A stretch of DNA of 63,966 nt, the filler included, from Sluysia triapertura (Eukaryota): assembly GCA_046118255.1 (NCBI GenBank). It is 5 parts of 5 records of this genome, joined end to end, with 100 filler letters (N's around TTAATTAATTAA, not from the genome) between each part and the next. Parts side by side here need not be neighbours in the genome. Positions count along the whole stretch, not along the records: positions 12,065 to 30,058 come from JBJNIA010183390.1; 4 more parts are not named here. One strand, written 5' to 3'. Below the pieces are notes generated by a model. The model did not search any database. It had not been told where the DNA came from and was given only the letters and a program-made list of their open reading frames with translations. Of this stretch, positions 1-30,172 are shown in pieces. The position numbers and the translations under genes were made by a program. Every line of letters starts with the position of its first letter. The first letter of the stretch is position 1.

Positions 1-465
1 ATTATAATTTAACTAATTGTATTTAGTTATTGCAAAATTTTGATTTATAACTGTTTGATAATTTATTTTATATTTTTACATATGTTTATTAATAAATTAT
101 TTAATCCTTATTTAATATTGATTTCCATAATTTTAAAATTTTCAAAAAATCTATCGAGATAAAAGCTTTTATACACTAGAAATTAACTCTAGTAAGAAAA
201 ATCTTTTTAACCGATCCCATATAACGGGATTTACGCAAAATTATTATTTTAAGCTTCTGCATTTAATATATAATTAAACTAATTTGAATTTTTAAAATAT
301 TCACCTCCAGATTTAAGGTGTTAAATAAAATCATTATTTAACAGTTAAGTATCTATTCTCGCATTAAAATCTAACGGCTGGCCCTCGCTGGTAAGTCCAT
401 TACGTTGGTGAACTAACGTAAGTTAATAAATCTTTATTCTATAAACTCCACAGTTCTCTCACAAT
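1..465 (-). repeat. Structured interspersed repeat, copy 1 (homologous to 11630-11964 and 19879-20309)
   Basis: Reverse complement reads ...AGTTCACCAACGTAATGGACTTACCAGCGAGGGCCAGCCGTTAG...CTGGAGGT...ATCCCGTTATATGGGAT...ACTAGAGTTAATTTCTAGT, collinear with the other two copies. Confidence 0.9.
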
Positions 466-1049
466 ACGAAAACTGTAAATATTTATTATTTTAATAACTT
501 ATATATTGTCATTAAATTTGATTATATAAATAAAAATTATTTAATAAAGTTTTTATGTTTTGATGAATAAAAAAATATAAAGTTTATTAACATGTAAATA
601 CGTTCAGATTAAAATGATACATGAAAAACAAAATAGAAATATTGCAATTGCTTTCAGAAGTTGAAAATTTGCAAAAGTTAACTCAATTTGATAAAAACAT
701 TCTACATAAAATATATAATAGTTCACTGATATTATTCAATTACATTTTAATTTAAATATAATAATGTTAAGTATTTTTAAATTTTAATTACAATGATCTG
801 AGATTTTTTTCATTTTTAAATTTGTCACTTCGTAAATTGTTCACTTTTTAGATGAAATATAAATAAAATGAGCAATGACAAAACCAGAAATTATTTTCGT
901 TTAAGCGTCAATATAAATCAACATTTTAATATCTGGTAGGATTTTTATAACCATAACAGATTTGAGAGCTGTGTTTTTTAAATTTTATTTTGAAATAAGC
1001 TTATCACCATTTTTAATCAAAATTTAAATTAAGTATAAATAGTAAAAGA

Positions 1050-1115
<66 letters not shown>
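1050..1115. repeat. (AAT)n microsatellite; similar tracts at about 1244-1306, 8551-8630, 8925-8987, 30160-30233, 36020-36108, 39117-39195, 41845-41900, 53803-53844 and 61433-61523
   Basis: Perfect or near-perfect trinucleotide runs directly visible. Confidence 0.95.
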
Positions 1116-1242
1116 TTAGATTCTTGAGATCAAACGAAAATCACATTTAAAAATGCCAAACATTAATGAAGAATTATGTCACTTATCAGATTCTAGCAAT
1201 TCTTTATTTTAAAGTTTGTAAATGTTTGTTTTTAATACTAGA

Positions 1243-1305
<63 letters not shown>

Positions 1306-3239
1306 TTTTCTTCTGTTACTTTTCATTATTTTGAGTTAAAATTATTTTATTACGTATTTTAAGTTAACTTGATTAATATAATAAATATACAGCTTAACAT
1401 TAGAATTATTTTGATCGAAATAGAATAATATTATTATTATTGAAAAATAAAATTAATATTAAAACCAAAATGTTGAAAGAAATTAAATTATAAAATATTT
1501 GAAATTACTCTTGTTACTAATAACATAAAAACTTCAGAACAAAAAAAAATAATTTTAGACAGACATTGTGTCAATCATAAGCTGAAATGCTACTAAGAAT
1601 TTAAATATAAATAATAACTGCGTTAGTATATTTTTTATCACTCTGGTTGCATTCTTATTACAGCAAAACTAGAAAATATTCCAATCTTAGTGTGTACAAA
1701 TTATATTAAGAGCAAAATTATTCACCAATAATATCTTGGTTTATAAAGAAACGTAAATAACTCTTACATAAAAGATATGCAAACAAAATAAGTTTATTCA
1801 AAAACAATATTGATATTAAAGTATTGAGTGAACTCTGCTACATAAATCATCTTGAAAATCATATCCATTTCATTAATAATAAATAATCTTTTAAAATAAA
1901 AATTTAACTAAACGCTTTTATTCCAAAAAAATATTTATAACGGACACAATTAAAAACGAAAAATATTATATAAGATATTACATGAAATATTAAGGAGAAT
2001 TAAAGAAACATTATAGATTCACAGGAACTTTAAAATCCCGTTCAAAACATAATTAAAAGTAGTAGTTGTACTTCTAGGAAACAAATTTTATAGAGTAAAT
2101 TTTTTCATTATGATGAATTTTGATTGAGTTTAATTGTTCAAGTTAATGACTTCTTTTTGATTTATTTGCATTAGAATAGCAATCTGTGTAAAATATGAAA
2201 TTGTAAAAAATTAATTTTTACATATTTATTATTCGACCAAAAAGTGTTTATTTAGATCTAGGATGAGCTGAAGGAAAATTATGCTGCTAAATAAATTTAA
2301 CAATTATTATAAGGAAAGTCAAAAGATGAATTGCAAAAAAATGGTTAAACTTAGAAAATAATTTCAAATTAAAATGTTGAAAGGCGTCTTTGACACCTTT
2401 GGTAGAAATTGTGTTAATGAATTTTCTGACACGATTTTTAATACAGAAATTTTTAAATATTTTTGGGGAAACGAATAATCCAACAACTAAAAGAAATTTA
2501 TAGTAAAAGTTCTCTTTGTGATGCGACGGTTTTGCAATAACTCAATAAATATGTCGGATTTTAATGAAGAAATAATTGCATTTGTGTTCATATAAGATCT
2601 TAGTATGTTATATGTTTACGTAAATCTAAAATTTAAAATATTCATTTTATTTTCTTCCAATTTATGTAAGGTATAATTTGAAATTGAATCAGTACTATCT
2701 TATGTATCAAATCTATTAATTTATACAATTTATTTTTCATTTCTATATGTATACCTATACCTTTGAAAAGCCTCAGATGCTTTCAAAGGTCTCGATTTTA
2801 CTTATTATCAACCTGCAGCAAAATAAATTTTAGTAAGATTAAATAAATTAAAATAAATTGCACGACTTACGACGTGTAATGGACATACCTGTAACTAAAA
2901 GCGGACATTCTAAAGTGAAAATTAACTCTAGATAAATAATAAGTTACTTATTAAATTTCCTTATAATATTGATAATATTTTAAAGACAGATTTTACGATA
3001 ATTTATTAAATTATTGAAAAATATCATAAGGGTCGTAAGCGGATTTTATTCTTGATGTTAACAAGAGAATCCAATCAAAAATTATTCCAATTAACAAGAA
3101 CATTGATTGATGGAAGTTGGTTCCTCGAGTATTTTTAATGAATCTTTCCAAATTTGTATTTATTATTGTTCAAATAAATTATGTTCAACAATAAATTATT
3201 TTCTATTAAATTTGCCCCTTTAAGGATGTTTGGGAATTT

Positions 3240-5560
3240 CGCTTTAATATTAAGTTAACACAGCTCTGACTGCAATGTTTGATGCGTCTTTTGTTAATAT
3301 GAATAGTTCACTTTGCAAAGGGAATGCAAGACTTTACATTTGTGAAAGTTCAATCCAACTCATCATTTGCGTTTTCTTGTCTAACGATAGAGATACTAGT
3401 GGTGCTAAGCTTTCAGATAATTTCGTTAAGAATAGGCGACAATAATTTATGAGATCAAGGAAACTTCGCATTTGAGTGACTGTTTGTGGTTGCGGGAAGT
3501 TCTTTATTGTGCCTGTATGGTTTGACAAATGTTCGAAGCTATCAGAAGAGATGTTATGGCCTAAAATGCGATTTTGGATTGAAAGAATTGACATTTCTTC
3601 GGTTTGATGATTAGATTATTGTCTGTCAGGAGTTTAAGACTTGGTCAAGGTGTTGTTTTTGTGAATCAATGTTGGTTGATGCGATGATAATATCATCAAT
3701 GTGTATTGCAACGAATGGTAAACTTTGCAGAATTTAATCTCTATGTCGTTGGAAGGTTTGAGCAGCATTTCTGAGAACAACGGCATTCGTGTGTATTCGA
3801 ATAAGCCGAAAAGTGTAGTCACTGAAGTTTTCGCGATGTCTTCTGGATTTACTGGGATCTGATGATAGGCTTTTGCTATATCAATTAATGAAAATACTGA
3901 GCAGCCAGAAAAATGATGCAAGATGTCGGTTATTAGTAAAATTGGATATGCGTCAGGAATTGTTACTTTATTTAACATTCTGTAATTCCCGTATATCCTG
4001 ATGCGGCCAAAGAGGAAGAAGATCGAAGCACAATCCTTTGTTTTTCCAATCAAGGAATTCCTGTTCATCTTGTGTCCGAACCTCTTGTAGTAATTCGCGA
4101 CGTGTCAGTTTGCACAGTGCAGTTTATATGGTATTGATGAATTGGGCGGAGTTTGAATTATGATCTGTTGAAAATTCCTCTTTTAATAGATCAAGGTGCT
4201 TGATCTCGATATAAGTTAGGACGTTTTCTTTGTTTATACAAACTTATGTGAAATATTTGTACTTTTAAATGTACCAGTGTTTTGTTTCTGCAATCGTAAT
4301 GATCGAAGAAAGTGCTCCTATTGGTGTACTGCAGCTATGACGAAATTCCACTCAAATATTTTTTGAATTGCGGTAGCTGGAATGAACCACGTTGCGGATG
4401 AACATTTGCCGCGGTTAGGTACTATGTAGGTATTAAGGTATTAGGAATTACTGATACTGCTGCACCTGTGTTTACTAAGAATTCTAGCTGAGGATAAATG
4501 AAATTTTGGAAAGTAAGCGGCACAGTGAATATTGAAAGTGATGCCATGTCGATCGGTTTGGTTGCTGTAACCTATGGCACAGTTAGTTTTTTGTTGGAGC
4601 TTTGCAAAGTGTACACATTCTTTCATACAATTGCATGCTAAATTCTTGAAATGTGCGTGATACAGGCATAAATCCTTGACTTGAATATTCATCTCATTGT
4701 TATGGAATTTGCATCCTATTACACAGCATTTTGATTTATTTTTGAATCTGCGGTAATAATGACAGATCCCATCAAATGATGTCTCGCATCTCGGAGATCT
4801 GAACTGTTGAGATCTTCTTTTCCTATTCATATTTGTGTTGTTACTGGTTGATAGCATTGACACAATTTTTGTTAGTGCATTTTTGTGAGGTCATTACGTA
4901 TATGCGTGAATTTGATTTGAGTAATTCAAATTTGTGGTATCTGTTATTGTATAAGGTTGTTTTCTCGACCCATATACTTGACTAATGCTTGCCTAGGGAT
5001 TATTTCCACAGTGAAGAATTATTCTATTTTATCTGTCATACTTCCTGATAAAACTGCTTTAACCATAGGAGGCATTGCATCAAAGAAGAGCTGTTTTAAG
5101 ATATGGTGATGCTCAAGATTATTTTTAATTTTCTTTAGAAATTCCGATGGACTAAGATGTCATAAAGACTGGATTTTAAAGTTGTCTTGGAAAATCTAAT
5201 GTACGCTCGGATTATAGTGTTTTAATATCAAGTCTTTCAGCTCATCGTGTGGATTTATTGCTCCTAAGCAAGATGAGATTTTATCTGATTTTCACAACTA
5301 GATCTTGTGGAAGTAAGGTAAATGCAGTAGTGAATTTCTGGTGCAGTTGGTTATATAAATCTCCACTTCAAGTCTGCTTCTAATACTACAACGAATTATT
5401 TTGGAGTTCCTTTACTATCGAGAAAGAAATTAGTAGGTGATAGAGCCGCCGCGGAGTTTATTTCAGTTGGTGTTGGCTGTTTTTCTTTAACGTCGGTAGG
5501 GTTGTTGTTACTACGAGGAAGTTGGTGTTGAATTTTAATCGTAGCTCCATTCTTTATATC
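3240..5560 (-). mobile_element. Decayed Ty3/Gypsy LTR retrotransposon (CsRN1-like): gag, protease, RT, start of RNase H
   Basis: Gag-like peptides (LKQLFFDAMPPMVKAVL), two CxxHx(n)CxxxC-type knuckles (ORF 4441-4863), protease FLVNTGAAVSVIP (~4443-4481, catalytic D to N), RT motifs DAYPI, DIAKAYHQIPV, GLFEYTRMP, YIDDII, MRSFLDLINYCR, RNase H start LTKDASNIAV (~3260-3300); many stops and frameshifts; LTRs not identified. Confidence 0.9.
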
Positions 5561-7929
5561 ATATTGTCGGGAACAAATAATTTATTTCAATTTTAAACAG
5601 GATTTTAAGATTGTGTAAGTTTGATAAGTTCTCGTGCATTCTAAATCTTACTTAAGTAAGATTGATCGAGTTTATTTTTGTTGAACTTGCGGTAACTGAA
5701 TATGATTGTTGAACAAATAATTTCACTGGAACTATGAAGATTATCTTTCGTTTATTATCAACTTCTTTCTTTAGACAATTTTAATAAAATTTTATGTTAA
5801 TTGTTGAATAATCACGAAATATGTCTTAAATGTTTTCTATGTAACTCCTTTCAATCGAATTATACGTTTTTAGATTTTTAACCAAAACTTCTGGTTATAT
5901 TATTCTGTAAAGTTTACTTTTTATAATCAGTTATGATTAACCAAAATTACGGCGCACGCGATAGCGCTTTTCTCGTTTTGTATCGATAATGCGAAGATGC
6001 TGCTGTTGGTAAAAAAGGAGTCGTGGAATTTGTGCAGCAAAACATTTTTGTAATAAGTGAAAATAAAAAATATTTTGTTGATCAAAATTACTTGTTACAT
6101 AACAATTAGTGTTAATTATAACCTTTCCCCCCAAAAAAAAATACCACTCATTTCATCCTGGACTTTTAGCATATACATAAGAAAATTATTCCGCACTCAA
6201 ACGGTTAATGAATGACAATAAAACAGTACTGAATTTATAATATAAAAATTATTAATCAACAGAATAATTAAAAAATTTACAAAGATTATTAATTTAAAAA
6301 ATTTAATAATTATTATTTAAAATATTTATTTAAATTATTTAAAATATTTACAAAAGTCATTAATTTTCAAAATTATTAATTGCATTTTAACATTTAAAAA
6401 TCTTTAAGATCCTAAACAATGTCTTTGTTAATATCTTTGGTTTTATAAATAATTTTTTGTATAGATGTTTTATCTGCTACCTGAGTGTAAATATACTATT
6501 TTATTTGAGTTTTAGTTAGTTATGTGGTCGAGGTTTTCAAAAATGTAGTACTAAGAACTATGCGACACAATCTTGAGATGTCTACCAGAGTTTATGCTGA
6601 GAGGACAATTGCCTCCTAGAATCGACGTCGTTGACATTAATTTGTATACTATTTCCGGATCATAAATATTTGTCTCGGGGATAAGTGGTTCTTTTTACGC
6701 ATGTATTGATGAAAATGAAAAAATGTTGACAAATAATTAGTGCAAGTGTTGATATTTATTCATAAATAAAGAATTAAGCAATAAATAGAACTGAATATAA
6801 TCAATGGAATATAAACAAAAGAAAAGTTTATTAAGTTATGATTAATTATTATAATAGTTAAAGAAACATTAGATTTACTTATAACTATTATGATTGATTG
6901 ATGGCACTTTGGGCGCTTAAGTAAAATACACAGAGACTTAAGGTCCTTACGAAAGTGGATATTAATTTTGCAAACGTCATACTGTTATTATTATTGTACT
7001 TTACTGACCTTAAACTAAAATTATAAGACATCGCCGGGTTATTACGTTTACGTAGAACGTAAGAGGAACAGAATTTTTTAATTTATGATCTGAGAATGTT
7101 TAAAGTTACGTATGTTTAGCCTCAATTTATTCCTTCCTGACAAATGTCTTTTGTAGAACACCGCATAATATAATTTTATAACAGTATATGTTTATTTATT
7201 TTTCATGGCATCGTGTTGTTTTTCTGAACTAAAATGAGTAAAAGAACAATATTTCCGCTATAAAATTTCCAGATTTTTTTATTATAAAATTATTTTGATA
7301 CAATGAATTTATAATAAATTCTACAAAAAAGAAATAACGGTATTAATTTAAAATTTTATTATTTTTAGTCAATAAAATAAAAAGTGATAAACTTTTGTTA
7401 ATCTATTGAAATAAAATCTTTTGTGTGAATTTCTTTTGTATGCTTTCCATAAAATATTCACCACGTAATAATTATTACTATATTTTAATGTAATAGTCCA
7501 AATTTCTAATTAAATTGTAAATTAATTTTATTTAAATTAATTTTTATGAAATATCTTGAAAACGTTATTTCTATGTCAGAAATATTTAATGATATTTAAC
7601 CACTTTTGAGTAGTTATTAAATTAATTTATTATTATTATTATTATTATTATAAAGCAAAATATAAATCTAAAAAATAATATCAAAGATATAAAAGATAAT
7701 AAAAGAATAAATATATTACTGTGGTTGATATTGCATTAATTATTATTATAAAACATAATAGTGGAATTTATCAGTTTTTTAAAACTATTTAAATTAATTG
7801 CAAGTGGATAAATGAATGTCCAAAGAAATAATCAGTTGCTTAGAATCGAACTATTAAAGATTTAAATTCAATTATAAAAAACAAAGTGTTACGAACGTCA
7901 TATTATTAATTAATAATATAGAATCAATG

Positions 7930-9399: not shown

Positions 9400-9810
9400 A
9401 CATATATGTATTTATATTATTTATTTCAATCTTTTCCAAGTATCCAATATTGCATCTTTTAACTCAGACATATTGAGAGTAATTGAAGCCATAAGTTTTC
9501 TATCAGATTGAGATTAAGGGATCTTTCTGGCCTCTCTAACACTTTTGATCCATCTTCACTGAACGTATTAAGTGTAGTTTTAGATCGATAACAAGGAGCG
9601 TTATCTTGCTGAAAGATGACATTGATATTTCCTGGACGTTTGACATACGGAATTACTACTTCTTTTATCCAATCATAGTACTTATCACCATTAAGAGTTG
9701 ATGGAACCACACGTAAGTCTAGCTTTTTATCATAAATTATGGCACCCATACCATAAGTGATCCTCCGCCACAAATTATCTTAGAAAATATTTCCCTTGAA
9801 TCCTCTAGAT
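9400..9810 (-). mobile_element. Tc1/mariner transposase fragment (DDE core)
   Basis: GGGSLMVWG-like motif (frameshifted), IFQQDNAPCY, RSLNLNLIENLW; truncated upstream by a hAT MITE. Confidence 0.9.
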
Positions 9811-11269: not shown

Positions 11270-11629
11270 GTAAACATTTTTATCATGTTTTAAGATAATA
11301 TATAAATATTATTTACAAAATTAATTTATTTTCTCTAATTACAACATAAATAATTTTTAATATTAATAATAATAGGAACATCTTATTAAACATGACTAAT
11401 CATTTTTTCCATATTTTAATTTATTAACTTATAATTGGATAATAGTAACAAAAAAACGGATACGTAACATGAGACATACGGGTGTGTCGCGATGATTATT
11501 GTTGATCAACATGGGAAGTCGGTGAATCTAACGAGGTAGTCATTGTAGTTCAACAGCGACAGCACATGGAAGTATCGGACTTATCGCGGATACATTAATA
11601 TTAAACGATTTGATGATATTTATTTAATT

Positions 11630-11964
11630 TAATTGTGTGAAAGGTGAGTAAAGTAAATGGAATAAAATGAGTTTAAAATGAGTTCACCAACGTACTGGGC
11701 TTACCAGTTAGGGCCAGCCGTTGGATTTGGTGTATAAAGTTTCAATAAATATAATAATGGAGCCTTAATGTTTAATCCTACCTGGAGGTAAACTTTGCTA
11801 ACATCTGCTAAGATTGTCAAATGTAAGTAGATCTGAAATATTTAAAGGAATTTCTCGAGAACTGTAACTATTAAAAATAAATCACACTTTTTCGTAGATT
11901 CCGTTATATGGAATCAATAAAATATATTTTACTTCCTAGAATTAAATTCTAGTCTTTAGAAAAC
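11630..11964 (+). repeat. Structured interspersed repeat, copy 2 (truncated by gap)
   Basis: AGTTCACCAACGTACTGGGCTTACCAGTTAGGGCCAGCCGTTGG, CTGGAGGT, GATTCCGTTATATGGAATC, CTAGAATTAAATTCTAG. Confidence 0.9.
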
Positions 11965-12064
11965 NNNNNNNNNNNNNNNNNNNNNNNNNNNNNNNNNNNN
12001 NNNNNNNNTTAATTAATTAANNNNNNNNNNNNNNNNNNNNNNNNNNNNNNNNNNNNNNNNNNNN
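11965..12064. other. Artificial contig linker N44-TTAATTAATTAA-N44 (also 30059-30158, 41282-41381, 52993-53092)
   Basis: Four identical 100-bp gaps, each centred on a palindromic six-frame stop 12-mer. Confidence 0.97.
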
Positions 12065-12099: not shown

Positions 12100-12156
12100 G
12101 GGCTGATAGCTCAGTGGTAGAGCATTCGCACTGCGCATCGATCCCCGGTCAGTCCA
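12100..12156 (+). pseudogene. tRNA-Cys-derived pseudogene with internal deletion
   Basis: GGGCTGA/TCAGTCC acceptor stem, D-arm TAGCTCAGTGGTAGAGC, Cys-like TTCG..CTGC..ATCG anticodon region; variable arm and 5' half of T-arm missing. Confidence 0.75.
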
Positions 12157-12179: not shown

Positions 12180-13305
12180 TGGTTGATAATATGTTTTGTA
12201 CCTAATAGAGTTTGGCAAACCGTACCATGTAGTTTCAAAGTTGTAATTGTCGGTCTGATTCTCAAAGAGGTTTGGATGATTTGTGTGAGAGAATGTTTGG
12301 TTGTGAGATTGTGAATTGATTTGATGATGAGAGAGAATAATATAAAGATTTCAAAATTTTTACATTACAATAACAAAATAACAACAATGACAATGATGAT
12401 GATAGATATGAAAATCAATACTTAGGGTAAAGTTTTTAATTTTTATTTATTATTTTATTAAAATAATAAAGTTATTTCAATTTGAATAATTTTAATATTG
12501 TGTCATTTTTAGCTAATTTTTTAAACTATTTTTAAGGTGAGTTGATAAGAAACTCCCTATTCAATTTTTGTAAAAATATTATTTTCAAGATAATTAATTG
12601 AAAACCATTTCATGTAATTTTTGTTGAATATTACATTTAAATTGTATTTGATTTTCATTTTAAGGAGGATTGATAAGAGACTCCCTACGCAATTTTTGTT
12701 AAGACTATATTTGATTTTTAGCTATTTTTAAGATAATTAATTGAGAGACATTTCGCATAATTTTTGTTGAAGATCACATTTAAATCATATTTTATTTTCG
12801 GTTATTTTTAATGTGAATTGATTAGAAACTCCCTACGCAATTTTTTCTATCAAAATATTAAGTATTTTAACTCTAGAAATTACTGTTAAGTTGTTCTTTA
12901 AAGTTATTATTACCAAGAATTTTATTGTAGTCGTAATAAAAAAAATATTTAAATAAAATAATTACTATTAATTTTCTAGATATTTATATTGTTAGTGTCT
13001 GTTGCGTCACTCCTGGTTGTTTTGTCATAATTAGATTGTAATATAATTGATTTTTTTGTTATTTTAGTTGTTTTCAGTATTTAGTAAAGATTCTTATTGA
13101 TGATAAATTATATTACGATTTTTTGTACATCATTGTCTTAGTTTTGATTTGATTTTCAAGAACTTAAATTTGGTGTAATAGTTATTAATATTATAAAAGA
13201 ATATTACTGCCGAAATATATTCGATATACTGACTATTTAAATTATTGAGGTTCCTTTAAGCTAATCAAGTTAATATTGAGTCATAATAGCTAATAATTTT
13301 AAAGT
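12180..13305 (+). repeat. Interspersed repeat homologous to ~22700-23402, probably part of the Polinton-like family
   Basis: Shared blocks GTACCATGTA..TGTCGG..ATTCTCAA..GATTTGTGTGA.AGAATGTTT, GTTGCGTCACT.CTGGTT and TTAAATTATTGAG.TTC.TTTAAGCTAAT..TAGCTAATAATTT in the same order. Confidence 0.8.
12530..12845. repeat. Tandem array of five ~55-75 bp units, alternating two subtypes
   Basis: Type A TTGATAAGAAACTCCCTACGCAATTTTTG at ~12542, 12670, 12818; type B GATAATTAATTGA.A..CATTTC...TAATTTTTGTTGAA at ~12589, 12732. Confidence 0.85.
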
Positions 13306-13375: not shown

Positions 13376-14269
13376 TCACGGATGATTAATTTCATTCTCT
13401 ATCATAGAATCGTCTGGAACTTCAGTAAAACTATCATTTGTAATGTTGCTGGCATTGATAATTAAATTTTGCAAACTAAGTTCGATTCCTAATTTTGATA
13501 AAATGGATTGATTCCTGAGACATTGATCAGCAAGTCAAGCTGGATAACCAGGAACATCGATTGTGTGGCAGTATAAGCAATTTTTTCCATGGTTGAAACA
13601 TTAACCAGTTTGAGTGGATGTATGCGGGCGGAGAGCCATCTGTAGAGTTTTGTTACCATTATAGAACGACTTGAAATAGTCATCTTCTGAATTATCCTTT
13701 GGTAATGTTGTCTCTAATGATTTTTCTTTATTAGTCATGACTAATGAATTGACATCTACTATATTTGTAATAACTAATTTGTGAAATGTTAAAATTATAT
13801 TAATAGAAATTTCTATAATTTTATCTTCCTTTGTCATTATATAATTCAAAACACGAGCATGAATAGAACTAAATCGTTTAAACTTAGGTACATGAAACAG
13901 TGCAGTCAAATTTCTCGTAATAATATTTTTTACACCTAGCTTATATACTAATTTGCAAGTATTAACATGAAAAGGTACTAATTTCTTAATAGGTAATGCT
14001 TTTAATTCGCTTTTTGAACATTGACGATATCTTATGTTCAGTGATGACATTAAATAACAGAGAATATTACAATCAATACCAGTTAAATGAGTACTCATTA
14101 AATTATACGTTATAATTTTGAATAGACATTTTTTATAATGCTCATTATTGATATCAAATTTCGTTTGGATAAAATTCATTATATCTTTTAACAAAGCAGA
14201 ATAACAATTTCTTTTAATAAATATTTCATTCAAAAATTCGTTGAATTCATCTTTCAAAATTTTCTCCAT
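13376..14269 (-). pseudogene. Intronless ORF of unknown function (222 aa open) continuing in frame past two stops into a CxxHxxxCxxC zinc finger; likely virus/Polinton-like accessory gene
   Basis: ORF track 13601-14269; same frame after TAA reads CFNHGKNCLYCHTIDVPGYPA*LADQCLRNQSILSKLG...INHP*; lies just downstream of the conserved promoter-like motif at 14445-14552. Confidence 0.55.
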
Positions 14270-14444
14270 CGCATAATTATTACTAAATGAGTAGTGAATA
14301 TTTATTTTGTCAACCAGATAAATTTTTTTGGATAAACAAAGTTACTGAATTTCAGGTTTAATTGATTTAATAATTTGGTGAAACATAATTCGTTAAATTA
14401 ATACTACCAACAATTAAAATGTAAATGATGAAATAACATTGTGA

Positions 14445-18017: not shown

Positions 18018-18716
18018 TCACTTAATAGATTTTGCAATCAAAGACTGTATAAGTTTTCGAATTTGTTCTCTTTTTTCATTAGAGTTAACTTTATAGTTTT
18101 TAATAATATCTTTCATTTGAGGGATAGAATATTTTCCACTTAAAATGAGATTAATTATTTTTTCTGCTAATATTATGCAATACATTCCACAATCACTTGA
18201 ATTATTCTGTATTTCACAATCAAGAAGTTCAATGATAGTATTTTTAGCTTTTAAAATACAGCCTAATTTATGTGCAACATTATCAGCTTCCCTTCTAAAA
18301 TGAAATAAAACAAATTAAAATTACTTGTTAGCATAACTAGGCCCTAAGGAATCTAAATAAAAACTTGTGACAACATGACTAGATAGATAAAGGATCAGTA
18401 AAAACCAGTGAATACCACCAGCTCTTTCAACAGTATCGTCACTATTTACTGGCAAAATAATCCACCCAGTTTCTTTAACCGTTACAGATTCCAAAAATGC
18501 AGCTTCTTCTAAATCTTTTGGTGATAAAAATTTGATCAATTGAACTGACGAAGGATTACCTAAGAATATATTTTTATTAGTCAAATGGTAATGGTCAGTT
18601 AAGTATTCCATATAAAAGTGTATAACACTATCAGTAATCCATCCACCTTTAATAAGGCTATTATAATCACATTGACGCATTACTGAATCTTTGTAGCTCA
18701 AAATTATGTCACTCAT
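18018..18716 (-). CDS. SENP8: Sentrin-specific protease 8 / NEDD8-specific protease (exons 18325-18716 and 18018-18294; 222 aa)
   Basis: MSDIILSYKDS, WITDSVIHFYMEYL, GGIHW (His), YLDS (Asp), and after splicing the GT..AG intron 18295-18324, QNNSSDCGMY (Cys); frame open to TGA at 18018-18020. Confidence 0.93.
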
Positions 18717-19878
18717 AAAATCAATTTTTTCCTTAACCTAAGATATATTTCGATGAAGGTTAGAGGTTAGAAATATAACTTTATAAATCAAATCTGTCTT
18801 CATACCAGATATTAACAAAAAACTTAAGATAATACAAAAGTAATTTATTTTTATCAAATTTAAAATGGAATTATTTTGCATAAAAAGGTAATTAATTGAT
18901 TTACACTTTTCAATTTCATAATTTAAATCTTTGTAGTCAAAAGTTATATTTGCGTATTATATTTTTTAATTATTAAAAGCATTTCATTTTATTTAAAATT
19001 GTTCCCATCTTTACTTATTAAAGTGGAAATCATTTATAAAAAGTTACAGTTTATGTACTTATTTCTAAAATGTATCTTATAATTAATGTTTTCACAAAAA
19101 ATTTTAAAACAATTTTTATTAAATTGCTGAAGTATTTTTTTATTTGACTTGTAGTTAAATTATTTAAATTTGTTTTATTTTATTCTTTCAGATTATGTAG
19201 GAATATTTAGGACTTATTTAGTTATACATGCTTTTGAAATTTTTTAATTACATTTATAATTACGGAATGGAAAATGCAATCGGAATCAAAAATTAGGAAT
19301 AAGATTTTTTAATCTTACACTGTGGTTTAATGTACAGTGAAATTACCTGAGTAATGCACCACCTTTATATGAATTTTGAATCTTTTATTAAAATGAATCA
19401 ATTATCTGTGCTAGTTTTCATTTTAAAGCAAAGTTTTCTTAATTTAACTTAATAAATCTTAAATAATTTTTGGTGAATACTTTCATTGCATACAAGTAAG
19501 TTAATAAACGTGTTCATGTTTTTTCGTCACTGTGTGATTAATTTAATTGCAAGCCATAAATATAATGAAACAAGAAGCAAACTTAAAAGACATCAGACAA
19601 TGCTGGATGACATCGTTTTACGATAAAATGCTGGTTTCTTTGCATCCAGGTATTATCATTAAGACGTTTCAAATACCATAAGGAAGGATGAGAGGCATTG
19701 TAAATCTTACATGTACTAGTGCTGCCTTATTTGACTCACCTGACCCAATAGCAAAAATAAAAAAGTACTTAAGCTCCTTTGTTCATTTTCGCCTCGTGCC
19801 TCATGCAGCCATTATGATCTATGCTATGTTTTTATATTAAAACTTTTGCAAAAATATTTTGGTGGTGCTTTTTATAAC

Positions 19879-20309
19879 GTGAGAAAAGTGTAGAATAAAG
19901 AGTTAATTAAAATTTGCGTGAGTTCACCAACGTACTGGGCTTATCGGCGAGGGCCAGCCGTTGGATTTTAATCGTAAGAAAAGATGCTTAACTCGAGTTA
20001 TAAAAGTTCTTAACACTTAAGTTCTGGAGGTAAATGTCTTTTAGATAATTAATTAAATATCAATTATAATAAATTTAAATGAGAATATTACGTAAATTCC
20101 GTTACATGGAATCGAATAAAATATAGTTTACCTACTAGACTTAACTTCTAGTATGTGAAATCTTTGAAATAGATTGATTTTATGATTTTAAAGCTATAGC
20201 AAAAAATTGAAACAAGTTTAAGTTTTATTATAACAATGATTGTAGATAAGAAATTAATAATAAAAATAATAAAGTTACAATAAACTAAATATAATTAGTT
20301 TAAATATAA
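19879..20309 (+). repeat. Structured interspersed repeat, copy 3
   Basis: AGTTCACCAACGTACTGGGCTTATCGGCGAGGGCCAGCCGTTGG, CTGGAGGT, ATTCCGTTACATGGAAT, ACTAGACTTAACTTCTAGT; 3' part matches reverse complement of positions 1-150. Confidence 0.9.
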
Positions 20310-22429
20310 AGAGATTTTTAAAATAATATTTTGTCTGAGATCGTTATACGATCCAAATAAAAATTCATAAATTTAAGTAAATTTTACTATTGATATTCTA
20401 CAAATATCTGATCTTAATAAAAATCAAGCTAACGTGATCCAATAAAATGATTCAAATGTCTGTGTTGAAATAGAAATTGTCTTCTTTAAAATTAATAATT
20501 AGACCTTGAAGTCAGATTAAAACAAAAGGATATATTTCGATAAAACAAAAATTTAGTAAAATAAAAATTTTTAATTAAAATAACTGGTTCTCATTAGCTT
20601 AATAATTTAATTCAAAAATAATTTTAATAAAAATTTAATTTAAAATAATTTAATTTAATAATCTCAATAAAAATTAAAAACATACTTTCCAATTTATAAA
20701 TTAATATTTCCAATAATTTGTAAATTAATAATTAATAAAATTAACACAAATAATAGTAAAAATTAATAGAATATTCACACAATCATAAATTGTTAGTCAT
20801 AGTAAAAATCAATAATTAATTCACATAAACACAATCATAAATTGTTAATCATGATAAATTGTTAGTGTTAGTCATCATTACAATAGATTAAAGCTCCGAT
20901 AAGGTTTAATCTATTACCCTTCAATATATCGGGAACTTAAAAATGTTACAAATAATTAGAAATTTAAGTATATTTTAAAATTTCAACTTCTAAAGTTGAA
21001 ATTGACCCTCTAAATATATAATTTACCAATGAATATTTTCCAATTTTTTGAATTGCTGCGAATTTCGAACCGTTACTAAAATCTCACAATTCATCAAACA
21101 AATCAAATTAAAAGGATATTTCAAAATGGCGATGTTAAAATGGCGATTTTCATTAAACGGATGCTAGTTTATATAGTAGTCATCAGCACGTAGGAAAGAA
21201 TGATGAATAATAATAATATTAATAATAAATAAACTCATCTTGTTTGACCTAGAATTTAAAAATTAAATTTTTAAATATTAATAATCACCTCACTTGACAT
21301 GTGAATATATTTTTCTTCACATGTAATAATAAAATAATTATTGACTAATCATTATTTATTCTTGGTATAAAAAAGTCGTCGCAAGAAATTGAGGACACAA
21401 GTGAAAAGCAATATGTTGTTTGTAGTTAAAATGAGCTTAGCAATCGTTTTTTGGCAATAAAAATCTGTTCGTTTCAGAAATCTTGGCAAATCAAATCAGT
21501 TGGTAATATAAATCTTCACTGATATTTAATCCGCTTGCTGGAAAAGTTCAAGAATTATGTATAATACAATTTGGTGGAATTCTAATTAGATTTAATTCCA
21601 GTGTCACCTGAACAAAGAATTTTATTTGATTTGCGGTTGAAAATTTTGAAACCATCAGTAAGCTTTTTATGTTAAGTTTAATTTCGGTTAGGAGATATAA
21701 AAATAACATAAAATCATTTTTAAACTCTTATTTTCATTTTAGAAATATTTTCTATTATTATTTTTATTATTATTTGGAATAAACTGTAATACACATTTAT
21801 TTTCATTCTTTATTAATATATATTGTAGTTTTGTCTTTATTTAGTTAATTTCTTAAAGTAATTATCAAGTTAACGGATCTAAGTTTAATCGAATATTTGA
21901 ACATAATATTTTAGTTGATCTATAGAATCTGTAAGTAATATTAAAGTAATTACTAAGTTAAAGAAGCCAAATATTTTATTTGATTTTTAGAATATATAAA
22001 GTAATGACAAATAACTAGACAAAAATAAACATAAATTCACTTATATTACGTCTTTTTAATAAAATAAAAATAAAAATTAAAATTATGGAAGTAAATCTTT
22101 TAGGAATTACATATGAGAGAGTTCTTTTCCAGAATTAAGCACTGTACTAAGCAAGAGATTAACTTTTAACTTTTATAGGTAATTAATATAAGAAAGTTAG
22201 AATATACGTTATTTGTCAGAAAAAACTCTCAGAAGTTTTCTAAGTACAATAGACTACAGATTCATAGTTTTTGTTATTAATTACAAGAAAAGAGTACATA
22301 TTCGCATATACTTTAATTACAAGAAAAGCTTTTTAAGTCTATGTGCTGTTACTTACGAGTACGTCTCCTTAGGATTAAAGCGTACATCGCAAGTGGACAT
22401 TTAGAATTAAAAATCAAAGTATAAGAAAA

Positions 22430-23770
22430 AACATAGCAAAGTGAATATGAAATGATTGCTATGGAAGAAGAGAATCTAGAAGTGAGTTTGAAATGTTTGC
22501 GGAGTGGTTTGTTTGAGAGCTTAAACATTTTCCATAAGAAAATTGGGTGTGGATAACCAAAAATCAATTAAATTCTGAAAACTAAAATTAAATTCACTAT
22601 TTTGTATGTATGTTAACAATAATAATGATTATTATATTAATGCGAAAATTAATTTAAGTAAAAGTAGATTGAGTAGAGTAAAGGAAAATAATAGATAATC
22701 GTAAATCAATTTTTCGTGTTTTGTATTTAATAAAGTTTGACAGTCTGTACCATGTAACTGTCGGATTAATTCTCAAGGAATGTTGCACTGATTTGTGTGA
22801 CAGAATGTTTAATCAAAAAATTTGGGAATAATTGGATGATGAGAAAATTTAAAAAGGAATACCAAAAAAATTTTACATCACAACAATAACACAACAGAGT
22901 CAGCAACGATTAATAATGCAAATGAGAAGATCCATGCTTTAACTAATTTTTGAATTTATTTTATAATTAAAAATAATATTATTTTGGGGAGATTTCATTT
23001 AAATAGTTTTTGTTTTTTGAAAATTTTATTTGATTATTATTAAGAAATAAACGTGAATAATAATTAACATTTTTCTTAGTGTTTGTTGCGTCACTTCTGG
23101 TTTCTTTAGATATACTGTTATGTTCTTAGAAATATTATAAACATTATTCTTAATCTTGTTATTTAGTCATTTTTAGTATTGTTTAGTGGAGATTTATAAT
23201 AATAATTTGTATTTGATTTTTGTTTAACCAGTAAATTATTTTGTTTTTATTAATTTGATTTTTAAAAACTTAATAATCATTATTATCAGAATAAGAGAAT
23301 TACTGAAAATTTATACTTGATATAATGAGCACTTAAATTATTGAGATTCTTTTTAAGCTAATTACATTGATATTGATTTATCGTAGCTAATAATTTCTAA
23401 AGACGAAACAAATACTTCAAAAAATACAAGATAAAAGTTTTACGATTCAAGAGATCTGGTTAAATAATTCTTCGTTCCTTCGTCATTATTGGTTTATATT
23501 AACATAATCATTCGTCACGATTCAATATTTTCTGAGTGGAATTTAGCTAATTAATTCTTAGTCATTCATAAAAAATTTGAACAGTATGTCGAAGTTGTGT
23601 TTGCTTTAAAAAGAAACATATAGTTTGAATGGGTTTATGAAAAGAAAGCCAAATTTTAATCAATTCTCAATTTTACAACGTTAAAATTTTCAAATTTAGA
23701 TTGATGAAAAGATAATGAATTGCATATGAAATGACTACCACGAAAGAGGAGAATCTAGAAATGAATATCA
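22430..23770 (+). mobile_element. Decayed fragments of the Polinton-like family
   Basis: GAATATGAAATGATTGCTATGGAAGAAGAGAATC (~22443) and GCATATGAAATGACTACCACGAAAGAGGAGAATC (~23722) match the minus-strand segment 50741-50783 upstream of PolB; 22700-23402 matches 12180-13305. Confidence 0.5.
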
Positions 23771-23948
23771 ATAAAATGAAATATCAATAAATGTGATGTG
23801 TCAAAAACCAAAATCATATAAACAAATATACAAACAATCATTCATTTAAAATTCTTATAACACTAACAAAACTGAACCAACCACTCATGACTACATTCTC
23901 ACATAATGATGCACTCTTTAGCAGTTTCCTTTGAACTAACTTCTAAAG

Positions 23949-26537
23949 CAGTGTTTTTTGTGCCATGTCCCACTTTAACCTTTCTAAAGTTTTTATGCCC
24001 CCTATGTAACACATATAATATTTAACATTAAAAAAGTGATTTGTTCACTTAAGAAACATAAATGATGGATTCTAGGAATAAATCACTATCAAATTGTTAA
24101 TAAAACACAGTAAGTAAATGTTCAAAACATATAATGAAAAACTGAAATTCAAATTCCAAATAATTTTAATAATGCTTTTTCTTTATTAATTTGTTACTTT
24201 AATTTAGTGAGATCCTTGCGTTTGATGCTTGCTGCAGAGAGATTTATTTGGGGTTCCAATTTGGTGAGCTTCAGTCACAAATCCCCAAGTTGTGTCTCAT
24301 GCAGCCTATTTATTTTTTCATCAGTAAATCATTTACAGACTAAATCCACATTCAGCCAAAAATGAAAATGGAAACGGTAGTAATAGTTTTCTTGCGCATT
24401 TGGTTGAGTTTGGGTATTTGATTTCCTTTTCCTCACAAAGCCATGCCATCGCACCTTTTATACTAAATAAAGTTTTAACGGAGTCATCATTTTGCAATTC
24501 GGCGAGTTCTGCATATTTGATATATCACACAAATCCCATTAACATTGGCTGCATCATCCATGTTGGGTTATCAATTTGCTTTAAATCTAAAAATCTTTCT
24601 TTTAAATTATTTAAATGATTTACAATAACAAGTAAAGCGGTATCAGTTACTTCACAATTTTGAAGCTAGTGGAACTGTTCAAAGTTTTTGTTGTTAATAT
24701 GTTTCTGACATAACTCAATATTGGTAATGAAACCAAATATCTTCGCTTTTGCATCGACAAGAGTTTTATTTGTCCTTTGAAATTGCTTATTTAATATATT
24801 TAGTTTTTCAAAGATATCGGCTAAATAACTCATAAAGGCTTTACCATCGATTGTTAATAGATGCTTCATTTCTGCTTCAAGCAGTTTCCTTTAGATAGCC
24901 ACTTTACTTCAGTATGAAGTAAAAGCCTCACATGGTCTTTAGCTTTAAAAGACGCTCACATTTGGCACTAGCTTTAATAACTTTAACACATTTATTACAG
25001 TATGTAGTACTTCGTTTAGAACATGTGAGATGTTTTTAGCTATCAAGATTTGCCTATGAATAACACAATACACAAGAATCATTTCTGGATTCGCATCTTT
25101 CATCAATTTTCAGCAGCCATTTTTCTTGCCCATCACATTAGGAGCACCATTTGCAGCACAAGATATTATATTTTTCATTGATATATCATTGACATCTAAG
25201 TAGTTTTAGCTTAATAAATATATCTTTGGAAGTAGCTGTGTTTTCTAATCTTTCGCAGAACAACATTTCTTCTGCAAAATGCCTTTATCAATATATCTTA
25301 CGTAAGTTATCAATACTGCCTCACTATCTCTCAAAGTTAATTCATCCATATGCACTGAGAATTTTCTTGTTTTCAGCTTTTCAACAAGTTGTTTTTCAAT
25401 ATCTTGACTCATTTCGTCTATTCTTCTGCTAACAGCATTTTTACTGAGTGGCACAGCTTCTACATCTTTGTCATCTTTTTCAAGAACGGTTTTAAGAAAT
25501 GCTGATATTGACGGTTTTATTAAATTCTCTCATATAGTGTGATTTTTTCCAGTTTTGGCGATGAATAAAGAAATTTGATAACTAGCATCAAGAACACGGT
25601 TATTGGTTGAAGTATGGGCAGTAAATAGCAACTTTATTGTTCTTTTTTCAAAGTTTTCTTTCAATGTTTTAAAGTAATTCAAATCTGAATTAATATGAGC
25701 ACTATGTTTCGCTTTCAAATGCGCCTCAAGACGACCTCGTTTCATTGATTCGTTACTCAAGCATTGCTGGCACAAAAGACAAAAAGGAACCCAAATTTTA
25801 AATATTCCTCCGAATATTGACAAGTTTTTTCTTGCTTGCACTACTCATTTTATTATGAGTTATATGAAATAAAAATAAAATCAATAAAAAATAATATTAA
25901 AATGTGTTAAAATTAATTAATTGTGACATAGAGCAAACGTATACTAAAATGCATATTTATATAAAACATTTACTACACTGCTACCGCAAATCAAAAGATA
26001 CCTATATTTTTTCTATTTGAAAAAATTCTCTGCAATGTTATGCTTCTAAAATTAAAATAAATAAAAATACTTACAAATTATATCTATATAATAAATAAGT
26101 ATATTTATAAAAACAACGAGCTTTTACTACAGTTTTGACAGACACTTCTTTCAGATTAATACCAACAGAATGATGTGAAACACTACATGTGTTGCGGCTA
26201 TAGGCCAATTAGGAGCGAACAACTGTGTTGTTTAGCAAATTTCTTGGTTGGCCGGGTTTACGCCTCCCCTCCCGGCAGACAGCACACTCCGCGGTGAACC
26301 CCGGACCAAGTTTATTCGACGATGCCATTCAACCAGTTAATATTTTGGTCTCGTCAAACGAAATTATTTAAGAATTTGCTGTTTTTTGCTAAATTTGGCA
26401 CCGATATCTAGCATTGCATTTAAATGGTCGGAGAGAAAGGGCTAAAGTTGTGTCGAGTCAATTTTCAAATTAAACCCTTCTGCAGGACACCCGAGCCTCT
26501 GCCCTGTGGGGCGCGTGCTAGACGTTGGGAAACATTC
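23949..26537 (-). mobile_element. hAT transposon, Buster/Charlie (ZBED5/SCAND3-like) type, frameshifted transposase ~24200-25850
   Basis: BED finger CLLCQQCLSNESMK..LEAHLKAKH, PLSKNAVSRRIDEMSQDI, FSVHMDE, YLADIFEKLNILN; termini CAGTGTTT (23949, after TTCTAAAG) and GTTGGGAAACATTC (26524-26537). Confidence 0.92.
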
Positions 26538-26654
26538 GTCTCAGATTAGAAACCTTGTCCCTCTTAACATGTGCCGATTTAAATATTATAATTATTAAAT
26601 AAATTTTAAATATTATATAAAATGAATGTCTTAAAAAATTTGTTTTAAAATGAC

Positions 26655-26690
26655 ACTAGGTTTTTTCCGCGTATGCTTTGCACGCAATGG
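26655..26690 (-). mobile_element. Helitron-like 3' terminus
   Basis: Minus strand GCGTGCAAAGCATACGC hairpin followed by CTAG-T. Confidence 0.45.
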
Positions 26691-29089
26691 ACACTTTGTA
26701 CCGGAGATTATATTACGGTAAAAATCATCATCCTAAGTTAAACTATAATAATAATTTCGAAATAATTATAAAGAAATTGTTATTGGTATTCAAAAACAGC
26801 AATAGCTTAAAAAATTGAAAGAAAACTTTTACCAATGGAAGAAGAAATCGGTGACTTGAAATTCGAATGAAATTAATCAAAAACAAGAACAAAAAGCGGA
26901 AATTTTAATCGAAATGCCTATATTATTAATCCGAGCCTTTAATTGATGAATATGAGATAGAAATGAATCGTATCACAATGGAATTAGATAATTCAAATTA
27001 AATAATAAAATATTTACCATTTTTCGACTAACTAAACTTTAATTAATTCGATTTTGTTTTGTCAAAAAATTTATATTTACTAAACAAACATACGTTTTAC
27101 ATTTCTATTTAAATAAATAAATACTGCATTATTTGATGGTTCAGTAACGAAAACAATAAATCAAAAGTCCAGCCTTGGAAGCCCAAGATCAATAATAACA
27201 AAAATATATTTCAATCACATTTCAAATGAATTCCGACAAAAAATACAACTGTTATAATGATGACAAATACATAATTCATAACAATAATAATAAATACGAA
27301 TAATTAAAATTTTTGTTCTTACAAAATAATATTAACAAATACAATTACTGAATTAATAATTTTTATTAGTAATATAATTTAGTTTGCATAAAGTACTATT
27401 TATAGATTTTTAATACTTGTCAATTTTAATTAGCCAATCATAAACATTCTAGAAAATTGTGAACAAGTTATGAACAATATTTTCTATTCAAGACAGAAAT
27501 TTAATTATCTAAACTTTACAATTTGTTCACCATTGTTGGTAAGCTACATTTTACAAGAAAACATTTAAAATATTGATATGTTCATTGTATTTATGAAATA
27601 AAATTTTGTTTTATTAGCATCGTGCTATATTAATTGTCAATAAAATGGCAATAAATAAAATATTTAAGAAATTAATAAAATAAATAACTTTAAATATTGG
27701 CATGCTATATTTAAGTTATTTTACTACAAATGAAAATTTAAAATTAATAAATTTTAAAACCATTATTGTAAATAAGAGTAATTATCATGGTTAATTTGTA
27801 CTTATTTTTGGTAACTTATAAAAATGTCGATATCTAAAGTCGGTATTAAATCGACGCACACTTTTTTTCCTTATCATTCATTAAGAACAAAAATTGGCGG
27901 CTGCAGTCACACTTTTTATATTTCTATTTTAAAATAAATATGAGTTTGATTAAAAAAACTAAGGATTATGATGAAACACAATATAAATATATTTAATATT
28001 ATATAAATAATAATTGTAATAAAAAAATTCATTTATAGAAAAAGTTGTTTTTTTATGTTACAATTTGTTAACCAATTAAAATTCATAAAAACGAAAATAT
28101 TGATTGACATATAATATTAAACTTTTTGAAATTGAACGATGTGACTGAGAATAAATAATAAAGTTAAAAATATATATTTCTGTTAATTTCGAAAGAAAAC
28201 AATGAAAAGTTACAAAAAGAAATAATTAACATGATTTGTAATTATTCACAGCCCTAAAATACAAAAATTCAATATTAATTAAAATTATTGTTTTGTGACA
28301 AAAACACCAAATTTCTCTCTACGATATAACTGGCAGTTGGTAGCGAATGTATTAAATTGAAATTTCAAGGAGTATAATCATTTTCCATAGAACTATTTTA
28401 TTAATAAAAATAATAAATTTATAAAACAAATACTACTCTCCTTCTCTAATGCGACACTACATCAATAAATATACAATTGCCTGCTGCTTTGTTTTTATCC
28501 ATTCGATAACCCTAACGATACAAAACATGGTTTGACTTTTCTTTTATTCACGTAATTGTAAATCTTGTGAATCCCGTGTTCTTCCTTATTGTAAATCGTT
28601 CTGTTTATTTTTTACCAAATTTTTTTCGTATTGCTCACACATTGGGAAATATTGCCAAAGAATAATATAATATAAAATTTTTAACTGATTGCTTTCGAAA
28701 TTTATAATGATTTTCATATGTTAACACACAGTAATTATAAATTATAAATCATTTTCTTTTTTAAAACTACAATTTCAAACATCTATCTAAAAAGATCTGA
28801 AATTTATAATTCTACTATAGATTTATTCATTTTATGACAAATAAAACTACAAAAAAATGTGTTAACGGTTTCTAAGTTCAAAGAATACATCTGTAAGGAC
28901 TGCCAACAATTATAAAAGCTCGCGAATGTAGCATAAATGCAAGTTCTCATAGGTGAACCTTAGTATAAATCAACACCCATATAATGTCAATGGACTAATA
29001 ATCTCTCTAATGAAGGCACACAAGACAGAAGAAAAAGAACTACTCAACGAGGAGTAGAGTACGAATAATATAACTATAACTATAAATTC

Positions 29090-29200
29090 TAACGAAACTA
29101 CACGGCACAGTTCTTTCCTAACTGGATTTTGTAGTAAAAAAAGAACAATTTCCAATTGTTTCAAGTGCAAGAAATATGTTTGTGGAAAGTACAAATCTAA
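29090..29200 (+). mobile_element. piggyBac-like C-terminal cysteine-rich domain fragment
   Basis: Reads CSKKRTISNCFKCKKYVCGK, resembling the piggyBac CRD. Confidence 0.45.
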
Positions 29201-30172
29201 AAGAAATGGTTTCAACATGAAATTACTGCCAGACTTAATCCAATGTTATACTCGAATAGACAGTGTGATTGTCAGAATTTCAAATCAGCATTAATCACTT
29301 CAAACTTAACAAAAATTACTGAATTAATTAAAATAAATATACTTATTCACAACTTTTAATTAACTTGTTATTCCTTAAATTAGTGGAACGATAAAACAAC
29401 GATAAAGCACTTTTAACATGGGCAATAAAGAACAATATTACGAATTTAAATGCAAATAAAAATACATGCTTAATTCATAACAATGTTAATATACATAATT
29501 AATTTTTGTAATTATAAACGATGATGTTATTCAATTGCCTTCATATTGTTAATAATATTCCTTTGCTTCATTAGTTTGTTTGTATATTACATATTTATAA
29601 ATAAGCACACACAAAATCAACTATATAATTCGTTTAAGACACAAAATATTCGGTGTGTTTTAATTTTATTCAATATGTATCTTTTTAATGAGTTGTTCAT
29701 ACTAGTCACATACATTATGACTTTATCCATCACATAATAGATAAACAACAACCAAATCATGGAGACATTTATGAAAAGTGGAACTTTATAGGAAATAACA
29801 TAGGTAATTTGTCGACATGGTATAAAGAGTTAATTATATAATTAATATAATTGGATATAATAATAATAATAATTAATTTCGTTTAATTTCAAGTTTAATT
29901 CGAAAATTTTTTTAACATAATAACAATATTATTATTATTCACAAAATACAAACAATAAAGATATAACAATTACAATTATCAATAAAGTGATAAAATGGTG
30001 CCGGAAAAATTAATATCAATGTATTTTTATGAGTTTCATTTACTTCTGATACAAAATCNNNNNNNNNNNNNNNNNNNNNNNNNNNNNNNNNNNNNNNNNN
30101 NNTTAATTAATTAANNNNNNNNNNNNNNNNNNNNNNNNNNNNNNNNNNNNNNNNNNNNCATCATCATCATCA

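Follow-up and report, generated by a model that had tools for sequence, protein, structure and literature searches.

The repeat copies and their neighbours in the window

The window analysed here is a stretch of 63,966 nt from Sluysia triapertura (assembly GCA_046118255.1), made of five parts joined end to end, and it carries intron-containing genes and transposon remnants. Its GC content is 19-34% in 2-kb bins, and the spacers between the parts (11965-12064, 30059-30158, 41282-41381 and 52993-53092) each have a 12-nt AT palindrome flanked on either side by 44 N. A C48 (Ulp1-type) protease gene (PF02902), which we take to be SENP8/NEDP1-like, was identified at 18018-18737 (-) and about 19740-19830 (-), with a predicted intron of 30 nt; a homolog search with the protease exon gave no match. 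An SK-channel exon at 40507-40974 gave 19 protein matches, and 15 of the 16 named ones were from flatworms, at 52-66% identity, so that the host is probably a flatworm. At 12100-12156 (+) there is a tRNA-like head with acceptor and D arm intact and the middle deleted (Rfam tRNA, 24.4 bits, E 0.016). It is followed by a segment, 12192-12383, that resembles 22717-22896, so that the two together probably represent a SINE family. Three direct copies of an ~80-nt unit lie at 12502-12860, 128 and 148 nt apart, and an open frame of 246 aa at 13601-14341 (-) has no Pfam match. A decayed Gypsy-like retrotransposon with a reverse transcriptase (RT) match occupies 3334-4890 (-); no link between it and the repeat described below was shown. 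The DNA-transposon remnants at 9459-9779 (-), 25245-25844 (-) and 62592-63228 (-) comprise one DDE_3 match and a pair of frames that look hAT-like on inspection but have no Pfam match. Dispersed repeats of 68-80% identity were also observed (12989-13307/23073-23405; 14445-14554/15567-15662/51280-51353; 23642-23761/50735-50853; 15031-15098/42984-43051).

An earlier sequence-only reading had described a three-copy repeat at 1-465 (-), 11630-11964 (+) and 19879-20309, and all three copies proved real when the window was searched by BLAST. With 19701-20500 as the query, a match to 441-2 was obtained (70.6% over 449 columns, E 3e-48), and 11641-11953 was matched in two pieces. With nhmmer and covariance models, no core other than those of the three copies was located in the window. 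The copies, hereafter A, B and C, and the parts of copy A are as follows:

19878-19917 (+): copy A leader, from the common left end (C/T)GTG(A/T)GA, with AATAAA at 19894-19899
19918-19969 (+): copy A core, which contains island a; 90-92% identity among copies
20024-20035 (+): island b, CTGGAG/GT, a predicted 5′ splice donor
20095-20113 (+): hairpin c, loop TTAYA
20135-20151 (+): hairpin d; a 3′ splice acceptor may lie in its first CTAG, as a weak candidate
20155-20309 (+): AT-rich tail of copy A, common to copy C; the A-C score is reached by 0 of 1,000 shuffles
20330-20395 (+): second c-d module, with hairpin e, GATCG-TTATA-CGATC, at 20339-20353
20396-20550 (+): further multi-copy sequence, depth 495-2,048 against 15.5 for single-copy DNA
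11634-11964 (+): copy B; leader from 11634, core 11678-11728, b 11782-11789, c 11897-11915, d 11936-11952
1-463 (-): copy C; core 417-367 with two core pairs broken, b 310-303, c 230-214, d 192-176

Copies B and C are truncated on the downstream side, by an N gap and by the window edge, respectively. The left end is common to the three copies, with a leader of 40-46 nt that starts ~40 nt before the core. The leaders align better than shuffled sequences do (1, 9 and 4 of 1,000 shuffles reach the pairwise scores), whereas in the 100 nt to the left of the leaders no alignment rises above the shuffles (649, 94 and 868 of 1,000). The predicted upstream 5′ exon of the C48 gene would start no more than about 50 nt from where copy A begins on the left, and the two are head-to-head. 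As had been noted, an AATAAA lies upstream of island a in all three copies, and the distance from its end to AGTTCACC is 21, 14 and 18 nt; this hexamer is commonplace in DNA of 77% AT. About 100 nt to the left of the copy B core, in a GC-richer stretch (11440-11600), a segment at 11576-11589 (+) matches the central part of the majority core over 10 nt, which may be due to chance.

The abundance of the repeat was analysed with the contigs of one sequencing run, the only run, DNA or RNA, listed for the region and possibly of the window's own sample, which add copies and not independent support; 1,895 contigs could be aligned to 19650-20550 at 80% or better. The depth was 15.5 on unique DNA, 478,783 on 19929-19959, and 495-5,576 over the rest of the element to 20550. 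At the left edge of copy A it rose from 133 (bin 19836-19866) to 5,019 (bin 19867-19897), and near 20177, ~25 nt after hairpin d and beside a T run, it dropped fourfold, from 4,034 to 944. Since multi-copy depth reaches at least 20550, the element is longer than the ~400 bp first assigned to it. Summed depth is not a copy number, and overlapping short contigs may inflate it up to about 31-fold; the core depth of 478,783 over 15.5 therefore corresponds to roughly 1,000 to 31,000 copies. Scaling the density in the window (3 in 64 kb) to 735 Mb gives about 34,000. Loose contig ends clustered at 19918 (83 contigs) and at 19968-19970 (225 contigs) with low agreement, which indicates that the core is common to many different flanks. 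Among the best 40 of the 63 substitutions in the run, only three fell within the core and, by inspection, none in b or in the Watson-Crick stems of a, c, d and e; the remaining 23 probably have a lower share, the lowest among those listed being ~13%.

Conserved islands, the predicted fold of the core and the donor-like site

The proposal that the islands are kept while the linkers have diverged was partly borne out. Between copies, the core, c and d are 83-94% identical, compared with ~47% for shuffled sequences. The linker between a and b is at shuffle level in copy B versus both other copies and unalignable to that of copy A (744 of 1,000 shuffles reach the score), and the linkers between b and c are mostly near the shuffle level; the exception to the proposal is the a-b linker of copies A and C, which is still related (0 of 1,000). 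Island b, CTGGAGGT, is present in the three copies and absent elsewhere in the window (0.27 occurrences expected), and the same holds for the CTAGA-N7-TCTAG of hairpin d (0.07 expected). The spacing is steady from the core to b (55, 53 and 56 nt) and from c to d (21, 20 and 20 nt), and variable from b to c (64, 108 and 72 nt).

Hairpin c was found as described, but the double compensatory change attributed to it amounts to one pair, U-A to C-G, of the 19 predicted pairs, and this is the only two-sided change between copies. Position 20095 reads G in all the listed depth of the run, and this G gives the hairpin one more pair, a G-C that copy B has too. This covariation cannot tell RNA from single-stranded DNA, because the stem-loops of DINE-1 elements, according to the part of PMC2374699 that describes them, covary as well. 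The CG-TTAYA-YG motif occurs four times in the window, each time inside the repeat element (0.37 expected). The fourth lies in the second c-d module, for which 0, 3 and 170 of 1,000 shuffles reach the alignment score with c-d of B, C and A, respectively. When aligned with copy B, hairpin e has two bases fewer than c in each arm, and this joint shortening is a second sign of maintained pairing. Had the copies simply decayed neutrally from a single master, islands rich in GC would not have survived in a genome this rich in AT, which argues for selection on the islands, most simply in many competing master lineages. Of the original structured-RNA proposal, the idea that short folded islands are under selection in a multi-copy, mobile element is supported; the inner fold proposed for island a is not.

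In that fold, island a was a long hairpin closed by CCAACG...CGTTGG with an inner CTGG/CCAG helix. The copies at 19927 and 11687 have these letters, but the copy at 1-465 reads CGTTAG and ATGG, so that 2 of the 13 pairs are broken, and two-sided changes affect 0 of the 13 pairs among the three copies. The stability of the inner helices was matched by 493 of 2,000 column shuffles, and the fold is unsupported beyond its outer helix. Among nested folds the long hairpin has the lowest energy in copies A and B, but it leaves the first nine conserved bases of the core unaccounted for. An H-type pseudoknot that would pair these bases is predicted on the + strand as follows:

19918-19926 with 19936-19944 (+): predicted stem S1
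19927-19932 with 19959-19964 (+): predicted stem S2, the outer helix of the long hairpin
19946-19948 with 19953-19955 (+): predicted stem S3, optional

S1 starts exactly at 19918, the edge of conservation, and its pairing holds in 25 of the 27 cells across the three copies; the best comparable helix on the - strand reaches 20 of 27. S1 was spotted by eye and after the fact; its score was matched in 47 of 20,000 shuffles when one segment was tested, and in 47 of 5,000 shuffles of the free columns when the helix could use any two free segments. Taken alone, S1 is weak (-4 to -6 kcal/mol, with 3-4 G-U pairs). The C-to-A change of copy C would lie in a loop of the pseudoknot, and each of the three core variants listed (19924 T>C, 18%; 19939 G>A, 73%; 19948 C>T, 37%) would exchange a Watson-Crick pair with G-U, or the reverse, in S1 or S3, a compatibility that is partly expected by chance for three transitions. 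No two-sided change was observed in the 18 pairs of S1, S2 and S3 among the three copies. With DNA energies the nested hairpin is more exceptional (z -2.9 and -3.6) than with RNA energies (z -1.3 and -2.4). As modelled, the pseudoknot fits the core as well as or better than the hairpin. It is a new prediction for the 51-nt core, of a knot-shaped RNA without catalogued match.

The suggestion that GAG/GT could be a splice donor gained support as sequence context: AG/GTRA is present in b in the three copies, 109-112 nt from the core start, and such a context surrounds 33 of the 5,497 GTs in the window. With the first CTAG of d as the acceptor, the predicted intron would measure 109, 152 and 116 nt (20030-20138 in copy A). 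This acceptor is weak, because 757 of 5,132 AGs are equally good, and in two of the three copies c is followed by an earlier AG. No intron-less joint was found among the DNA contigs listed in the run. A purine bias of the + strand was discarded as evidence (p 0.006-0.35; 13% of background windows are equally biased). A tandem period of ~250 nt after c-d was looked for and not found, the scores being reached by 100-356 of 500 shuffles.

Candidate identities of the element

The repeat is real, abundant and unclassified, and it is most likely the end region of a mobile element of a known broad kind with an undescribed structured module. Our tentative preference is that it is the terminal repeat, with promoter/leader function, of a retroelement that keeps its introns, similar to the pLTR of Penelope-like elements and acting as + strand RNA. 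The repeat, its islands, the common left end, the high depth and the donor-like context are observed; transcription, the fold, splicing, retro-mobility and a coding partner are what we infer. According to the sections of PMC8557442 on these elements, Penelope-like elements carry a 30-40-bp tail, have the start site and a 5′ intron in the pLTR, and keep their introns, and the Naiads among them lack hammerheads and reach up to about 37,000 copies. By analogy, the ~40-nt leader with its AATAAA would be the junction between the 3′ end of one unit and the start of the next, like the tail of a Penelope-like element. The transcript would pass the core, which as a pseudoknot could signal in cis to the proteins with which the element copies itself, and would then cross the donor at b. 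A 5′ intron of variable length that contains hairpin c is likely and would stay in the genomic copies. Many master lineages may have diverged for long, with only those that had intact islands going on to spread, and inserted copies would decay afterwards, as copy C did. Among 114 frames scanned, no RT or GIY-YIG frame adjoins any copy, solo ends being common in such elements, and the sole RT match in the window, some 3 kb from copy C, is that of the Gypsy-like remnant. No second core that could form a tandem or inverted pLTR pair was found near any copy, B and C being truncated downstream.

A non-autonomous rolling-circle element (Helentron, HLE2, HINE/DINE-1) is a possible, though doubtful, identity that stands close to the retroelement repeat, the latter being ahead. 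The islands would then be single-stranded DNA hairpins read by a Rep-helicase, c-d would be a terminal module duplicated as e, and the core would be the counterpart of the one conserved in DINE-1. In a, c, d and e the invariant stems are Watson-Crick, the core hairpin scores higher as DNA, and the c-d module is duplicated. The c palindrome is followed after 20-21 nt by stem-loop d and, ~25 nt further on, by the T run at which the depth falls; in the description of PMC4067079, HINE palindromes lie 8-35 nt from the end. However, the A-C homology extends beyond the T run, and the core hairpin, 49-55 nt from the common end, is outside the HINE range. The 5′ arm of c is similar to the DINE-1 subterminal inverted repeat (subTIR) given in Table 1 of PMC2374699, and a conserved core with a covarying stem-loop is described there too. 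Helentrons are defined by a pair of 11-18-nt subterminal inverted repeats, but the GC-containing 11-13-mers in the left 100 nt of copy A have no inverted partner in 19980-30058, save one AT-rich, chance-like match, and the first 13 nt, where a subTIR should be best preserved, differ among the copies. A rolling-circle element of this kind, which would insert between T and T without duplication, is also consistent with the TT before GTG at the left end in two of the three copies, and with the failure to find a poly(A) tail or a convincing target duplication. Neither a microsatellite nor a central tandem repeat with a unit over 24 nt was present, and the donor context and S1 are unexplained by a Helentron. 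Among the frames scanned in the window, none is a Rep-helicase.

Other DNA-element features were rejected. An 8-nt direct repeat (19875/20430) considered as a target duplication consists of letters common to the leaders of B and C, and a 9-nt inverted match (19889/20394) is contradicted at 20402, where all the listed depth of the run has a different base. A Helitron (HLE1), which has a 5′ TC and a 3′ hairpin plus CTRR end at an A/T target, is not compatible with a common left end other than TC and a homology that runs past the CTAG of d. A MITE or TIR transposon is dismissed because, rightwards of copy A, there is neither an opposite-strand core nor a terminal match in inverted orientation.

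It is improbable that the copies are a host family of small-RNA or promoter loci, in which the 51-nt block would be a short transcript or a protein-binding module under host selection. The block does have sharp ends, at G19918 and at the T run 19966-19969, and copy A is head-to-head with the predicted first exon of the C48 protease gene. Against this, b, c and d accompany the core in all three copies, copy C has broken pairs, the A box, the B box and a common Sm site are all absent, and thousands of copies are better explained by mobility.

The same scepticism applies to an LTR, whether solo or partial, from retrotransposons of Gypsy type (Burro-like or TRIM-like) whose families would all have kept their R/U5 structures. 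Two of the three copies begin with TG, and the AATAAA and the donor are LTR-like, but the AATAAA is merely 16-27 nt from the start. Planarian genomes are Gypsy-rich, as stated in the portions concerned of PMC6431247 and 10.1101/2023.12.22.572568, and solo LTRs of taeniids splice into genes, as the relevant part of PMC4558846 has it. However, no convincing TG...CA end with a 4-5-bp duplication was found for copy A up to 21500; a 6-nt match at 20588 lacks a duplication and occurs five times to the right. Furthermore, a PBS and a PPT were not recognised by eye, and no paired second copy flanks a retro-ORF.

By analogy with the HDV-like and hammerhead ribozymes of other retroelements, the core could also be an undescribed self-cleaving ribozyme that would cut just 5′ of G19918 and free the element RNA, which we consider very unlikely. 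Conservation does begin abruptly at the G that would open S1 as a G-U pair, the predicted pseudoknot is compact with well conserved loop letters, and ribozymes are described at retroelement ends in the passages of PMC6765202 on this subject. On the other hand, the core shows no covariation, has no Rfam match and no hammerhead or twister core, and offers no space for an HDV P3/L3. The hammerhead class (ribozyme, retrozyme or Schistosoma Sm-alpha) was defined by a CUGANGA and GAAA core, and CTGANGA is absent from both strands of every copy, in agreement with the sequence-only reading. The same applies to twister, which is marked by its L4 loop motif, absent from the six strands. The HDV-like fold is a nested double pseudoknot with P3/L3 between P2 5′ and P1 3′; an HDV-like ribozyme was rejected, since only TAC lies between S2 5′ and S1 3′. 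Copies A and C carry on their - strand a hexamer similar to L3, but by inspection it has no P1 partner, and it is absent from B.

The Rfam comparison suggested earlier returned nothing for copy A at E≤10 and only a chance match to SNORA26 (E 6) for copy B, and over the whole window at E≤1 it gave one unrelated weak match. Resemblances to the LSU rRNA helix 91 flanks, RNase P/MRP P4, the SRP Alu domain, the V-SINE core, the planarian SL, pistol and hatchet were also considered; these look-alikes received no support from Rfam and were dropped. The suggestion of a SINE body, whether tRNA-, 5S- or 7SL-derived, fell because the copies have no A box or B box and no Rfam or ARAGORN match. Flatworm SL RNAs carry an Sm site after the donor. 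Their leaders end in ATG before the donor, as described in the part of PMC12582326 devoted to them. An SL RNA was rejected because the donor at b is preceded by GAG, with no ATG/GTRAG, and no Sm-type site is common to the copies.

Pattern scans gave 0, 0, 0 and 16 matches in viral contigs and 0 and 2 in metagenomes, and none of these 18 loci fits the core model; the two metagenome matches are in GC-rich, coding-like DNA and lack the 3′ arm. A full-text search of the literature with core motifs returned one unrelated paper, and topic searches, with Repbase and Dfam outside their scope, returned no description. Returning to the retroelement terminal repeat, a bolder form of it, which we hold unlikely, is that the 47-nt pseudoknot would be a new self-cleaving or protein-binding RNA that replaces the hammerhead in the terminal repeats of a lineage of hammerhead-less retroelements, in tens of thousands of copies in a single flatworm genome. 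The repeat bears on how ends are marked and processed in hammerhead-less Penelope-like elements and in Helentron-type relics, and a 51-nt core in thousands of diverged copies within one genome constitutes a natural mutational library. If the repeat is only a Helentron end or a piece of an LTR, it is a useful, ordinary entry for a flatworm repeat library.

Comparison with known systems

The repeat resembles HDV-like ribozymes in its predicted pseudoknot and in the G-U opening at the edge of conservation. In R2, RTE and L1Tc elements such ribozymes lie at the 5′ end, as stated in the relevant part of PMC6765202. The repeat differs from them in having only 3 nt at the place of P3/L3, no Rfam match, and upstream sequence that is common to the copies. 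With the LTRs of ta-TRIM and Burro, to the extent that PMC4558846 and PMC6431247 describe them, it shares a (probable) flatworm host, many solo terminal repeats and splice donors in or near them, predicted ones in its case, whereas neither LTR ends nor a target duplication, PBS or PPT is shown for it. Like DINE-1 and HINE in the excerpts of PMC2374699, PMC4067079 and PMC11417382 concerned, it is non-coding, is present in high copy number, has a conserved core near one end and covarying stem-loops, and shows no convincing target duplication; in contrast to what is described in them, no paired subterminal inverted repeat was found here, and a donor-like site is present at a fixed spacing.

Unlike the Penelope-like pLTRs, as they are presented in the pertinent sections of PMC8557442, the repeat shows no adjoining RT/GIY-YIG, no tandem or inverted pLTR arrangement and no (TA)n target in the three copies, and it has a conserved predicted pseudoknot, of which those sections describe none. 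With the pLTRs of Naiad and Chlamys, in the same sections, it has in common a terminal extension of 30-40 nt (here the leader, as a candidate), a retained 5′ intron (predicted here), the lack of a canonical hammerhead, a copy number on the 10^4 scale (estimated here), and many families per genome.
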